Shown piece after piece: positions 34,890 to 38,440 of a stretch of 64,000 nucleotides of DNA. The DNA lies in contig CAZGHD010000001.1 of NCBI GenBank assembly GCA_964525525.1, forward strand, positions 5,288 through 69,287, written 5' to 3'. How positions within the stretch are numbered: position 1 is the first letter of the stretch; each line of letters starts with the position of its first letter. The position numbers and the translations under genes are program-made. Under the pieces are notes generated by a model, which did not search any database, was not told where the DNA came from, and saw nothing but the letters and a program-made list of their open reading frames with translations. The stretch is from an uncultured Lachnospiraceae bacterium. GTDB lineage: Bacteria > Bacillota > Clostridia > Oscillospirales > CAG-272.

Positions 34890-35194
34890 ATATATATTCC
34901 TAAAGCTTTTAAAATAAATGTCCGCAGAAAAGCGGCGGATATAAAAGATATTACGTTTATAAAGGCGATCATAAAAACTACGGGTATTGCATTGAATCTG
35001 TAATTTTTAACGTATTTCCAAAACAGGAAATACAGATGCCCGACGCGGACGTAAAGCGGAGCGATTACTGCCGCAAGTGCCGCGTGAAAAGATATAAAAT
35101 AAAGCATCGCCGCAAACGAACTGATCGTGATAAATACTTTTAGTATTTTATGCCACGGAACTAAAATATAGTTTATTCTGTCAGGAGTTTCCAT
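34886..35194 (-). CDS. Small 3-TM membrane protein, translationally coupled to the MutS-family gene
   Basis: Hydrophobic 102-aa product. Its stop overlaps the downstream start as ATGA. Confidence 0.5.
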   Translation of the reverse strand: METPDRINYILVPWHKILKVFITISSFAAMLYFISFHAALAAVIAPLYVRVGHLYFLFWKYVKNYRFNAIPVVFMIAFINVISFISAAFLRTFILKALGIYI

Positions 35195-35196
35195 TT

Positions 35197-35316
35197 TTAT
35201 ATTTTGTTTGCCTTTTCAATAAGAGCTTTAAATCTGTCTGTGTCGCGAATGGGCTCAAGGTCGCGGGTGTTCATCTCTTTGCGGAGACGGTATATGGTCT
35301 TTCCTATAGAATGCAT
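35197..35316 (-). CDS. Possible 39-aa ORF (MHSIGKTIYRLRKEMNTRDLEPIRDTDRFKALIEKANKI)
   Basis: Hand-translated. RBS GAGGTGACCGCA precedes the ATG, and the stop lies 2 nt before the next start codon. It resembles the first helix of XRE-type HTH proteins but is too short for a full domain. Confidence 0.3.
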   Translation of the reverse strand: MHSIGKTIYRLRKEMNTRDLEPIRDTDRFKALIEKANKI

Positions 35317-35429
35317 TGCGGTCACCTCGTTTTCTTTATATTATTGCAGTGCTTTAAGAATATTATATCAAACTGAAAATAAAAAGTAAACAGAGAGAAA
35401 GTAGAGAAAAAACCAACGGCGCGTTGAGT

Positions 35430-35815
35430 TAAGTCAAGACCACCAGCCGTGCCGATGGCTTGCACAAGCCCCCTTGGGGTACTTCACATGCTGAGCCTAT
35501 AGGCTCGTCGAATTATCCGTCACTTGCGGTAGTTGCCCTACTACCACAGATGTGGTAACTATATTAAGCCTCCCTTGTGTAAAGGGAGGGGGACCACGAA
35601 GTGGTGGAGGGATTGTAAGGTAAATAATAAATAGAAAACAATCCCTCAGTCAAAAATCAAAGATTTTTGCCAGCTCCCTTTGCACAAGGGCGCCTCCCGC
35701 TGCGGCGGGAACCGTCTAAAGCTAAAGCTTTTTGGCACCACCGGCACTGCCGATGGTTGTGTAGACAATACGATCTCCGCCCAAACGTGCAAAACGTTCG
35801 GGTGGAGAATTTGTT
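35430..35815. ncRNA. Hairpin-dense non-coding region, candidate structured RNA of unknown class
   Basis: About 14 consecutive short perfect or near-perfect hairpins and no credible ORF. The two G-U pairs I found favour the + strand. The last hairpin (35777-35805, GCAAA loop) is followed by AGAATTTGTTT. Confidence 0.3.
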
Positions 35816-35842
35816 TAGTAAAGAGTACCTTAGATTTTGCGA

Positions 35843-38440
35843 TTACTTATTATCCCTTGCGGCGATGTCAGCTTCGTAGTTTGCTCTGTCCTGAGTGCCG
35901 AGGGCGTTGCGGAAGAGAACTATTCCGGACTCGTCTTCGTCAAAGGTGTATTCTACCGAGCCGTGCCAGCCGTTACCGAGCTCTGTCGGTTCGTAACGGC
36001 GGAACAGTGAATCAGCCACGGGGAAGTAGCCCTCGCCCTTGCCGCGGTAATCGGTCAGCTCCCAGATGCAGTCGAGCTTGCCGTCCTTTCCGTACGGGCG
36101 GGAGAATTTAACTATACCTATCTCGGGTGCAAACCAGTACTCCATCTTGCCGCCGCGATAGCCGTAACCTCCTTCGGGACCGGTAAGATCGAATTTTATG
36201 TGTCGGCAGTTTTCAAACGTTCCCGCTTTGGTTATAACGGTTTCCTCGTCAAGCACGTCGAACACAAGGTGATTGGATTTTCCTTTCCACGTGGGCACGT
36301 TGCGCTCATCGTGATACCCGGGTATCCATTCGTCACTCCATATAGTACCTGCCGCGTCATAGAGAATATCGTAAAGGAAGCTATAGAGAACTTTATAGCC
36401 CTCGTCTCCGCAGTTACCCATATCCTTCCACTCAAAGCTGTATTTTCTGTTGTCAGAAATTTTAACCTTTCCGTCATTTGTGTCAACGTCTATAAGCTCA
36501 AAGAAGTTCCAATGTCCCTTTTCGGTATAACTCGGGTTGAAACCGGGGTCGGTTGCCAATATACGCTGCATTACGTCGGTCGCGATAGCGATATGCACCT
36601 TTTCACGCTTGGTTTTTGCAAGCTCTGCGGCGCGGGCAAGCGGCTTGCTTACGTCTACGATAGCTTCACCACCGTCGTTTTCGGTATAATAACCGCGACG
36701 TACGTGGAGCATATTACCTTTCCATGAATCATCGTAACCGAGATGCTGTACGAATGTGTATGCTTTGACAGTTACGCTGTCGTCGGCAGCGGCGGTTACC
36801 TCAAAGGTGTTTTCCGCTTCGACTATAACTGCGTCGGTGGATTTGGGTGTGTAGCTCCATTTGTTGCCCACAGCGAACGGGAGCATTCCGCTGCCGCCGA
36901 GTATGGTGTAGCTGTCAAGCTCCCATTCATTTGTCTCGTCATAGCGGTTTACGATCTGGTGCACGATACCGACGCCGGGACAGAAGGTGGTATCGCAGAA
37001 TTTAACACCGTATTTTTCACCTTTGAAACGGTAAAGTGAGCAGTTTTCAAATTTTCCTGCAGGGGTATCGACAGTTACGTCGTTTGATACGTAAGTCAGG
37101 GTGCTGTCACCGCTTGTCTTAACGTCGCCCGGCTTCATTTCGGGGTCGTATATAAGACTGTTAAGTCTCGAGCACTGCCAGAAAAGTGATGAGTCGTATT
37201 CGTCTGCATAGCCGCGGTGATAACCCGGCTGTGACCAGAAATAGAGCTTACCGTCGATATACTTATATACCTCGCCCTGAACTCCGAAACGGAATTTTTC
37301 ATAGGGGAGATCAAGCTCGTGCGCTTTTTTCTCCGCGTCGATCGCCGCGAGAGCGTTTGCGTAGTAAACGTCGCTCGGCTCGAGAAGCTCGAGTACCTTG
37401 TTGTATGCATTCATACAGTCCTCGTAATTTTTCTCGTCGCGGGAGTAGCATCCGTACCAGAAGTATGTGTATGCCAAGGATTTTACAAATCCGTTTTCTT
37501 CGAGAAACGGCATCTGCGTATTTTTCATAAAATCAAGGCGTTCTTTGCCGGAATATTTTCCGTGCTCATACGCCATTACCGACTGCATTACATCGTCGTT
37601 ATGGCTATTTAACGCTGCGTCCTTCATTTTAGCAAGAACTTCGTCGTTTCTCTCACCCGGCAACCACCAATATCCTCTCATAAGTACCTCTGCGAGAGCG
37701 TACTGCTTTTCATTTGATTCATCAAGCGCTTCGACGTCCCCAAGGACACGGCGATATTCTTCCTCAAAGCCGGTTATGTCGTCTCTGATCTGCCACAGCT
37801 TGAGCTCCTCGACCTGCCGCATAACGCGTTTTACGAGAGCTTCGTTTTCGTCGTATGTCTTTTCCATAATACCGTATTCCTTTCTCAGTTGTTTCCGCCC
37901 CTCGCACAGACGCCACTTTACCGTCCCTGCCGGCAGGGAAAGGCGCGCGGCTATCTCGGCGACCGAAAGACCTTCAAAGTAATGCAGAGTGACCGCCTCG
38001 CGTATCTTTTCACTCAGTGCTTCAACGGCCGTGTGAAGCTCTGACGCCTGCTCGTCCTTTGACAGATTTGCGATACCGAGCATATCGAGTATTTCGCTAT
38101 TCTCATCGTCTGCAAGCTCAATGCCCGAGAGCAGGTCAAGGCTGATGTCGGGAACGGTACTGCGGTAGTGAGCGACCAGAGTGCGAGCCTTGTTTTTGGC
38201 TATGTGACACACCCAGGAACCGAATTTATTGCGGTCTTTGAGCGAGTCGAGATTGATCCACGCAGAAACGAATGCGTCCTGTGACGCATCCTGCGCGGAA
38301 AATTCGTTTTCGGTCACCTTGTAGGCAGTTCCGAGAACCGAACGCTCGTGACGCAGTACCAGCTCTTCAAACGCGAGCTGATTTCCGAGCAGGGTCAGCT
38401 CTACGAGAACGTCGTCATTGTGTTCCGTGTGTTTTGTCAT
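35843..38440 (-). CDS. ECF-type sigma factor fused to a roughly 670-aa soluble C-terminal extension
   Basis: Residues 1-190 hold sigma regions 2 and 4 (..QDAFVSAWINL..FGSWVCHIAKNKA.., ..LSVAEIAARLSLPAGTVKWRLCEGRKQL). The rest has no TM segment. It comprises a helical W/Y-rich part and then two related beta-rich modules (AGKFENC..PGVGIV..WEL / AGTFENC..PEIGIV..WEL). Confidence 0.8.
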   Translation of the reverse strand: MTKHTEHNDDVLVELTLLGNQLAFEELVLRHERSVLGTAYKVTENEFSAQDASQDAFVSAWINLDSLKDRNKFGSWVCHIAKNKARTLVAHYRSTVPDISLDLLSGIELADDENSEILDMLGIANLSKDEQASELHTAVEALSEKIREAVTLHYFEGLSVAEIAARLSLPAGTVKWRLCEGRKQLRKEYGIMEKTYDENEALVKRVMRQVEELKLWQIRDDITGFEEEYRRVLGDVEALDESNEKQYALAEVLMRGYWWLPGERNDEVLAKMKDAALNSHNDDVMQSVMAYEHGKYSGKERLDFMKNTQMPFLEENGFVKSLAYTYFWYGCYSRDEKNYEDCMNAYNKVLELLEPSDVYYANALAAIDAEKKAHELDLPYEKFRFGVQGEVYKYIDGKLYFWSQPGYHRGYADEYDSSLFWQCSRLNSLIYDPEMKPGDVKTSGDSTLTYVSNDVTVDTPAGKFENCSLYRFKGEKYGVKFCDTTFCPGVGIVHQIVNRYDETNEWELDSYTILGGSGMLPFAVGNKWSYTPKSTDAVIVEAENTFEVTAAADDSVTVKAYTFVQHLGYDDSWKGNMLHVRRGYYTENDGGEAIVDVSKPLARAAELAKTKREKVHIAIATDVMQRILATDPGFNPSYTEKGHWNFFELIDVDTNDGKVKISDNRKYSFEWKDMGNCGDEGYKVLYSFLYDILYDAAGTIWSDEWIPGYHDERNVPTWKGKSNHLVFDVLDEETVITKAGTFENCRHIKFDLTGPEGGYGYRGGKMEYWFAPEIGIVKFSRPYGKDGKLDCIWELTDYRGKGEGYFPVADSLFRRYEPTELGNGWHGSVEYTFDEDESGIVLFRNALGTQDRANYEADIAARDNK

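Follow-up and report, generated by a model that had tools for sequence, protein, structure and literature searches.

Repetitive extragenic palindromic sequences and bacterial interspersed mosaic elements (REP/BIME) are short imperfect palindromes that are dispersed and mostly extragenic, combine into inverted heterodimers and mosaics, and vary among strains (PMC2817692, PMC3733652); the Rickettsia palindromic elements (RPEs) are mentioned in the second of these sources. In REP doublets forming hairpins (REPINs), two units lie inverted to each other with a short spacer between them, and the pair can fold into a single long hairpin (PMC3337134). Another repeat, TM_ECO of Escherichia coli, adopts a triplex in vitro, and the loci that it marks are rearranged to an unusual degree when strains are compared (Holder et al. 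2015; PMC4666352). Moreover, a survey of MITEs (miniature inverted-repeat transposable elements) of the cMITE/vMITE type found them enriched in human large-intestine viral sequences (PMC11602168). Here we analyzed a stretch of consecutive hairpins at positions 35430-35815 of a 64,000-nt segment (hereafter the window) of contig CAZGHD010000001.1 from an uncultured Lachnospiraceae bacterium, which lies downstream of an 865-aa ECF-sigma/DUF3108 fusion gene (hereafter the sigma-fusion gene). We consider it probable that this region is a BIME/REPIN-like mosaic of palindromic repeats, which entered the 3′ untranslated region (UTR) of the sigma-fusion gene as a strain-specific insertion of ~330 nt. 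As the repeat units at its core are scattered by hundreds in gut Clostridia and their phages, the region is best described as repeat DNA and not as a gene dedicated to a structured RNA.

Insertion polymorphism and composition of the insert

Homologues of the sigma-fusion protein are numerous among Clostridia, including uncultured Oscillospiraceae. Four close loci share the gene order of sigma-fusion gene, a 373-aa HTH_3/TPR gene, a 102-aa gene and MutS_V. The insert is missing from all four of them, namely L026 and L027 (sigma-fusion protein 85% identical) and L028 and L029 (83%), the L numbers being those of the loci compared in this analysis. Both flanks align at 85-92%, and the close relatives have only 32-66 nt in place of the ~360-445 nt of the window. 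The insertion point sits between the 3′ hairpin of the sigma-fusion gene and its terminator, and is thus within the 3′ UTR. Among 24 species-level genome loci with a sigma-fusion identity of at most 63%, nhmmer found no homologue of the element, and the downstream spacers there are short.

The region has the highest hairpin density in the window, with nine perfect hairpins of at least 6 bp in each of three 400-nt intervals starting at 35301-35501, compared to a window-wide mean of 1.6 (standard deviation 1.7). All eleven exact stems listed in the initial annotation are in place and are perfect reverse complements. The 12-bp terminal stem reported there is likewise in place, but carries one wobble and one mismatch on either strand. 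A 401-nt stretch covering the region has a predicted minimum free energy (MFE) of -163.9 kcal/mol on the plus strand (z -7.21) and -171.0 kcal/mol on the minus strand (z -8.49), and none of 100 dinucleotide shuffles was as stable on either strand. The G-U pairs had been described as valid only on the plus strand. Direct reading of the end hairpins (35439-35459 and 35737-35757) gives the opposite, C.A mismatches on the plus strand and G.U wobbles on the minus strand, whereas the long-range helix 35567-35588/35674-35695 contains one G.U pair on the plus strand.

The core of the insert is occupied by two copies of a repeat unit that we call family-A. The unit is ~46 nt long with the consensus AATCCCTCAGTC-H1-GACAGCTCCCTTTACACAAGGGAGC, and has three parts, namely the pyrimidine tract X1, the hairpin H1, whose sequence varies, and a second hairpin H2 (CTCCCTT/AAGGGAG). 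Two types are distinguished by the H2 arms, which are CCTCCCTT/AAGGGAGG in type 1 and GCTCCCTT/AAGGGAGC in type 2. The order along the insert is a module termed C, small hairpins, the inverted family-A pair, small hairpins and a second module C, as follows.

35433-35766 (boundaries ±5 nt), no strand: strain-specific insertion of ~330 nt, a mosaic of small palindromic repeat modules
35439-35479, minus strand: module C copy 1, with the hairpin CCACCAGC/GCCGATGG that has two G.U wobbles on the minus strand only, and the palindrome CCCCTTGGGG (35470-35479) after the hairpin
35493-35555, no strand: three small hairpins without a family match, GAGCC/GGCTC, GGTAGT/ACTACC and CCACA/TGTGG
35569-35616, minus strand: family-A unit of type 1, gene-sense, with X1 ATCCCTCC (35614-35607) and H1 ACCAC/GTGGT (35605-35593)
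35589-35569, minus strand: H2 of the type-1 unit, CCTCCCTT/AAGGGAGG
35607-35647, no strand: 10-bp stem GAGGGATTGT/ACAATCCCTC around a 21-nt AT-rich spacer, the X1-to-X1 junction of the inverted type-1/type-2 pair
35638-35693, plus strand: family-A unit of type 2, in antisense orientation relative to the genes and decayed in part, with X1 ATCCCTCA (35640-35647)
35651-35669, plus strand: H1 of the type-2 unit, CAAAAATC/GATTTTTG
35673-35693, plus strand: H2 of the type-2 unit, GCTCCCTT/AAGGGCGC, with one pair broken
35696-35731, no strand: two small hairpins, CCCGC/GCGGG and AAAGC/GCTTT
35737-35757, minus strand: module C copy 2, which repeats copy 1 in the same direction, with a 9-bp hairpin ACCACCGGC/GCCGATGGT in the form ACCACCGGC-N3-GCCGATGGT

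A profile built from 128 distinct family-A units identified exactly two units in the window, both of which lie in the insert: the type-1 unit at 35616-35569 on the minus strand (nhmmer E-value of 3e-7) and the type-2 unit at 35638-35691 on the plus strand (3.3e-8). The type-1 subtype of the window is also present in 19 viral stretches and in Vescimonas, and the H1 variant GTCAAAAATCAAAGATTTTTG of the type-2 unit recurs in L087 and L080. In the proposed organization, the core would be an inverted heterodimer of a ~46-nt unit abundant in gut Clostridia (Oscillospiraceae) and their phages, framed at the ends by two direct copies of module C.

The two copies of module C account for the diverged direct repeat noticed earlier, which extends over 20 nt (35439-35458 and 35737-35756) at 85% identity. 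Copy 1 is 80% identical over 41 nt to the metagenome contig L310, which has a 42-nt module C in common with the metagenome contig L343 (93% identity). As the flanks of these two contigs are unrelated, module C represents a second, low-copy repeat family. The MFE structure pairs both copies of the window with each other as a closing helix. However, the homologues in L310 and L343 are single-copy, and we therefore take the local module C hairpin, not the closing helix, as the conserved feature.

The segment 35714-35742 is 72% identical to 35649-35677, and the two small hairpins at 35696-35731 may be a decayed tandem copy of the type-2 unit H1, as judged from sequence.

Several other patterns drawn from the insert were scanned. 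The outer 20-mer ACCACCRGCNNTGCCGATGG gave 10 matches in the viral scan, all of them chance coding matches. In the metagenome scan, ~70 of 88 stretches belonged to one unrelated human-gut element, and the rest were due to chance except for L310 and L343. That unrelated element is characterized by the conserved sequence AAGACCACCGGCGATGCCGATGGGTTGAAATAACACATACATTTTATAG, a chance match of the 20-mer pattern, which was found in ~70 human-gut metagenome contigs (L271-L358) with at least two alternative left flanks and resembles the terminus of a mobile element widespread in the gut. The pattern TGCCGATGGYTTGNNNRAGCCCC had seven viral matches, all in one phage coding sequence, and the short-spacer pair pattern GGAGGGATTGT..ACAATCCCTC had no match in the viral scan.

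Dispersal, orientation and covariation of the family-A repeat

A BLAST search of the element against plasmids and phages returned only the 49-nt core 35566-35614, at four places in the chromid of Vescimonas fastidiosa. The Vescimonas locus L030 (1070-1683) resembles the window in that a series of hairpins forms a multi-module mosaic in a 600-nt spacer, but the stem sequences differ. Pattern searches extended the family greatly: AAGGGAGGGGGACC..GGTGGAGGGAT occurs in 19 viral stretches and ATCCCYCAGTC..CAGCYCCCTTT in at least 120, giving a family total of at least 140 viral stretches in addition to the four Vescimonas places, each with different flanks. The 128-unit profile detected 288 units in 2.1 Mb of loci selected for carrying repeats, compared to none in 624 kb of unrelated metagenome loci. 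BLAST with the consensus unit retrieved five unannotated faecal phage contigs and no plasmid. Canonical family-A copies from 13 loci had no Rfam match, and literature searches with the DNA words of the unit and with its peptide translations found nothing relevant. The family thus appears to be undescribed in Rfam and in the searchable literature.

Up to five copies occur per 10-14 kb, and where a locus has four to five, these often share a single strand. Adjacent units are arranged either in tandem (32 cases) or inverted X1-to-X1 (30 cases), with a single H2-to-H2 case, and the inverted spacers range from 0 to 76 nt, compared to 21 nt in the window. Typing of the 25 distinct inverted pairs gave 19 type-1/type-2 heterodimers, no homodimers and six pairs that could not be typed; the pair in the window is likewise a type-1/type-2 heterodimer. 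Single units between co-directional open reading frames (ORFs) of at least 150 aa are gene-sense in 23 cases and antisense in one. These ORF-context statistics come from a greedy long-ORF caller and are rough, as GC-rich repeats create spurious ORFs.

Family-A is mostly intergenic, but sometimes sits in frame inside ORFs. Units inside real genes are read in three different frames, and each contributes 15-17 residues to the protein, for example IPPPSFDGPPPFRAREA. In the single-stranded DNA-binding protein (SSB) of L049, the unit (2231-2280) encodes approximately residues 115-131 in the linker behind the Pfam SSB domain (residues 2-106), leaving the acidic tail intact. Two further units, at 3952-4002 in L040 and 8019-8065 in L039, each fall in a linker between domains of a giant polyvalent phage protein; the sizes of the two proteins are 2323 and 2821 aa.

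At the 3′ end of type-2 units, the H2 3′ arm shows micro-expansions, with at least four tandem copies of GCACAAGGGAGCCTTT in L083 and two in L148, which points to slippage at the unit. In addition, a second, very abundant hairpin repeat family, GTCATTGCGA-hairpin-GTGGCRATCCGT, was found in 103 viral stretches (loci L176-L270). Its copies often all lie on one contig strand, such as 17 copies within 13 kb of L180 (all plus) and 14 of 14 in L224 (plus). A copy immediately precedes a type-1 unit in L030 and L130, and 28 loci carry both families. The hairpins at 35519-35556 of the insert had been suspected by eye to belong to this second family; the family profile gives no match there.

We then examined column-wise covariation by an unbiased mutual-information (MI) scan of 232 distinct unit copies from loci L030-L175. 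Both hairpins display strong Watson-Crick covariation, for instance H1 at columns 14-20 (GC 110, CG 72, AT 17, TA 8) and H2 at columns 28-44 (TA 138, CG 39). The non-Watson-Crick pairs of H1 comprise 38 G.T on the sense strand and 13 A.C, a wobble count that favours the sense strand. The folding energy of the unit is ~2 kcal/mol more stable on the antisense strand, which we judge uninformative because mirror repeats are expected to allow alternative G.U pairings.

Besides the pairing within hairpins, three variable columns of X1 covary with H2 in mirror register: column 3 with 32/40, column 7 with 28/44 and column 9 with 26/46 (i+j=35). The MI values for this mirror mapping are 0.50, 0.32 and 0.88, compared to at most 0.16 elsewhere. 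The resulting triads are either T with T-A or C with C-G (TTA 154 and CCG 20 at columns 3/32/40; TTA 129 and CCG 31 at columns 7/28/44), and the positions between the variable X1 columns carry an invariant C with C-G. The X1 columns vary independently of each other (MI of at most 0.11), and the same swaps take place in type-1 and type-2 backgrounds. X1 columns 3-8 (TCCCTC), placed over H2 columns 27-32/40-45, could form six triads, and type-1 units seven. Direct reading of the window indicates that its minus-strand unit retains all triads, whereas the plus-strand unit has the broken H2 pair.

The hallmark of an intramolecular triple helix is a mirror register of this kind together with swaps from T.A-T to C.G-C, and the covariation suggests that the family-A unit adopts such a fold. 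In the predicted triplex, the sense strand would be of the class IV pyrimidine motif and the complement of the class II purine motif, with H1 as a connecting loop. X1 would sit in the major groove of H2, with triads of U.A-U and C+.G-C for the sense strand or, for the complement, of G.G-C and A.A-T. Our broader proposal, that family-A is an undescribed and very abundant repeat of gut Clostridia and phages with members that adopt an intramolecular triplex, is tentative, and we hold it to be somewhat doubtful. Given their gene-sense placement between phage genes, single units could be RNA triple-helix modules that act as exonuclease blocks or as processing marks of polycistronic mRNA. Alternatively, the triplex could be a structure recognised in single-strand DNA mobilisation. 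Owing to the clean mirror-register covariation, the formation of natural triple helices is open to direct tests in bacteria and phages.

Two origins of the orientation bias are possible, and the data fit both: the units may be selected as RNA, or mobilised as single-stranded DNA on the lagging-strand template. In IS200/IS605 biology, the lagging-strand template is the sense strand of genes that are co-oriented with replication. We propose that family-A units would spread as selfish DNA via a single-stranded hairpin intermediate, like REP/REPIN and IS200-type elements, and that the copy in the window would have no specific role. If a transcript passes the 3′ hairpin of the sigma-fusion gene and continues to the terminator at 35427-35413, the insert would ride in the 3′ UTR of the sigma-fusion mRNA, where its gene-sense unit and hairpins could at most be a barrier to 3′ exonucleases.

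Flanking genes, transcription signals and alternative explanations

The flanking genes agree with the earlier description: on one side lies the MutS-like operon, which encodes a MutS_V protein with small upstream ORFs, and on the other the 3′ end of the sigma-fusion gene, which ends at 35843. All of these genes are on the minus strand. Beyond the insert, the locus contains the following features.

35197-35325, minus strand: 42-aa ORF, which is what an in-frame deletion has left of the 373-aa HTH_3/TPR (XRE-type) regulator gene
35362-35390, minus strand: promoter-like site (TTTACT, 17-nt spacer, TGnTATAAT), just downstream of the terminator
35403-35427, minus strand: intrinsic terminator, TCAACGCGCCGTTGG then TTTTTTCTCT, with a hairpin at 35427-35413 followed by T6, which ends the sigma-fusion transcription unit
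35775-35807, minus strand: the sigma-fusion gene's own 3′ hairpin, outside the insert

A consensus scan of 35000-36100 found canonical transcription signals on the minus strand only and no promoter-like site on the plus strand. The terminator is kept in L026 and L028, and the promoter-like site at 35362-35390 is predicted from its sequence to serve the downstream operon of remnant ORF, 102-aa ORF and MutS_V gene. We assign the 3′ hairpin at 35775-35807 to the sigma-fusion gene and exclude it from the insert, because it is retained in the insert-less L028, where two of its pairs have changed on both sides in a compensatory manner (A-T to G-C and G.T to T-A).

The regulator gene is intact in the nearest relatives (L026, 8745-9866; L028, 2880-4001). 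The 42-aa remnant in the window retains the first ~16 and the last ~23 codons with the loss of ~330 codons, and the junction has a microhomology of only ~3 nt. This strain has probably lost the regulator of the MutS_V operon. The presence of the deletion remnant beside the insert means that the locus was rearranged in more than one way. The sequence directly after the sigma-fusion stop also differs in three close strains (L026, 8586-8640; L028, 2695-2776; window, 35766-35843), with an unrelated terminator hairpin, AAAGCGTTCATCGACC-GAAA-GGTCGGTGAACGCTTT, in the spacer of L026; this short spacer is hypervariable. An exact-protein look-up of the sigma-fusion protein returned no record, and that of the 102-aa neighbour returned one short Logan contig (L001, SRR14307658). 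It is the only other contig with the MutS-like operon of this strain and begins inside the type-1 unit, at approximately window position 35586, which looks like an assembly break at the repeat.

Several observations weigh against the interpretation as a BIME/REPIN-like repeat mosaic. About 200 of the 330 nt of the insert match no repeat family; the small hairpins at 35493-35555 and 35696-35731 have no homologue in the 3.0 Mb of fetched loci. A second copy of the whole composite was found neither there nor in the viral and metagenome scans. No further family-A copies were found in the 64-kb window or in 270 kb of the relatives' loci, so that the family does not appear abundant in this lineage, whereas classic REPs have a high copy number in the host genome. 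Nor was a cognate transposase identified: a crude HUH/Y1 motif screen of the ORFs in 2.2 Mb gave only rolling-circle Rep-like proteins and no IS200-like or RAYT (REP-associated tyrosine transposase) protein. Finally, the insert may act as part of the 3′ UTR.

This last point leads to the alternative that survives best, though we regard it as unlikely: an exapted 3′ UTR element, in which the insert would be a minus-strand structured RNA carried by the sigma-fusion mRNA and serving as a stabiliser, a processing site or a 3′ UTR-derived small RNA that ends at the terminator (35427-35413). It is in line with the position of the insert between the gene's 3′ hairpin and a canonical minus-strand terminator, with the slightly better z score of the minus-strand fold, with the wobble pairs of the end modules on that strand only and with the intact family-A unit being gene-sense, the orientation preferred by the family (23:1). 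However, the nearest relatives do without the insert, and it is thus dispensable for the sigma-fusion gene. Moreover, the whole architecture is conserved nowhere among the places searched, the consensus scan found no promoter of its own, and one of the two family units is antisense and decayed.

A classical MITE, namely a 330-nt non-autonomous transposon with terminal inverted repeats (TIRs) and a target-site duplication (TSD) that was moved as a whole by a DDE transposase, is less plausible again. The clean presence/absence polymorphism against L028 would fit such an element, as would its extreme ends, GTCAAGACCACCAGCCG (35433-35449) and CGATGGTTGTGTAGAC (35751-35766), which by direct reading match at 12 of 17 positions as inverted repeats; MITEs shared by gut phages and their hosts are also documented (PMC11602168). 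By contrast, the conspicuous end modules are direct rather than inverted repeats, the junctions show no clear TSD in comparison with L028, and neither the 64-kb window, the viral and metagenome scans nor the fetched loci (3 Mb) contain another full-length copy. The core and the end modules, furthermore, occur independently of each other elsewhere.

The initial annotation favoured an ornate structured RNA gene on the plus strand, spanning ~35430-35815 and ending at the 35777-35805 hairpin. The strong predicted plus-strand fold, the T-rich tail AATTTGTTT after the last hairpin and the single plus-strand G.U pair of the long-range helix speak for it, but we now consider it very improbable. A cmscan search against Rfam 15, including the ROOL, GOLLD, OLE, raiA and HEARO classes, found no match in the whole window at gathering scores and only chance-level hits for 35250-35950 at permissive settings (E-values of at least 1.3), and a tRNA/tmRNA search found none present. 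The consensus scan of 35000-36100 gave no promoter-like site on the plus strand, and more of the wobble pairs favour the minus strand. The element is absent from the closest relatives and from the 24 distant syntenic loci, and collecting homologues from syntenic loci, viral and metagenome scans and the 3 Mb of fetched loci provided no counterpart of the whole architecture. The proposed terminal hairpin lies outside the insert and is conserved in a relative that lacks the element. The stems of the insert are copies of dispersed repeats: the central palindromes recur at hundreds of unrelated intergenic places, which argues against the RNA gene and bears out the fallback suggestion of a REP-like palindrome cluster.

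The least probable alternative is that a hairpin-binding enzyme recognises the region as a DNA site at which recombination, replication or transfer takes place, namely att, dif, oriT or an origin of the rolling-circle kind. In its favour, dense cruciform-capable palindromes, the rearranged neighbourhood with its deleted HTH-TPR gene and the rolling-circle Rep-like HUH proteins found by the motif screen in nine of ~240 unit-bearing viral loci (L075, 12065-12976; L082, 10065-10925; L108, 6809-7879; and six similar loci, with the three scanned matching Pfam REP_ORF2-G2P) might be cited, but the adjoining genes examined encode no recombinase, relaxase or Rep, and many units per phage contig and inside ORFs are unlike a unique site.

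For the window, the repeat-mosaic interpretation is deflationary, in that the region would be ordinary selfish repeat DNA and not an "ornate RNA". Genome scans should expect such mosaics in the intergenic regions of Oscillospiraceae, and these should not be called RNA genes. The family-A units also give rise to ORFs that are spurious or extended, insert in frame into real proteins, and probably break metagenome assemblies.

Comparison with known systems

The mosaic resembles the REP/BIME elements of Enterobacteria and Pseudomonas in many respects. Both consist of short imperfect palindromes that exist in many copies, mostly between or after genes, form inverted heterodimers and mosaics with other short motifs, and vary among strains. 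However, the unit described here is longer (~46 nt), with two hairpins and a conserved pyrimidine tract. It differs further in its hosts, which are gut Clostridia and phages, in the strongly gene-sense orientation of single units and in an apparently low copy number in this genome. The main text of the GTAG/CGTC survey makes no mention of Firmicutes, Clostridia, Faecalibacterium or Ruminococcus.

Similar to a REPIN, the pair in the window is inverted, with a 21-nt spacer. Compared to the REPIN-RAYT system, by contrast, the crude motif screen detected no RAYT or IS200-like Y1 transposase beside any unit, the pairs are heterodimers, and many units are single or in tandem.

RPEs are intragenic palindromic elements, and family-A units likewise sit in frame in real genes, namely in the SSB linker and in two polyvalent proteins. 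The copy in the window differs from them in being extragenic, and neither the sequence family nor the host is related. As with cMITEs and vMITEs, family-A comprises short non-coding repeats common to gut phage contigs and bacterial genomes, though without clear TIRs and TSDs of the classical kind.

Compared to TM_ECO, which has a Y-R-R arrangement with loops of 3-6 nt, no strand bias and no link to phages, family-A has a 13-30-nt hairpin as one of the "loops", a biased orientation, an association with phages and some intragenic copies, and its triplex is a predicted one. Nevertheless, both are abundant and conserved intergenic repeats with three tracts in triplex register that are sometimes arranged as inverted tandem pairs, and the locus in the window, like those marked by TM_ECO, is also rearranged.

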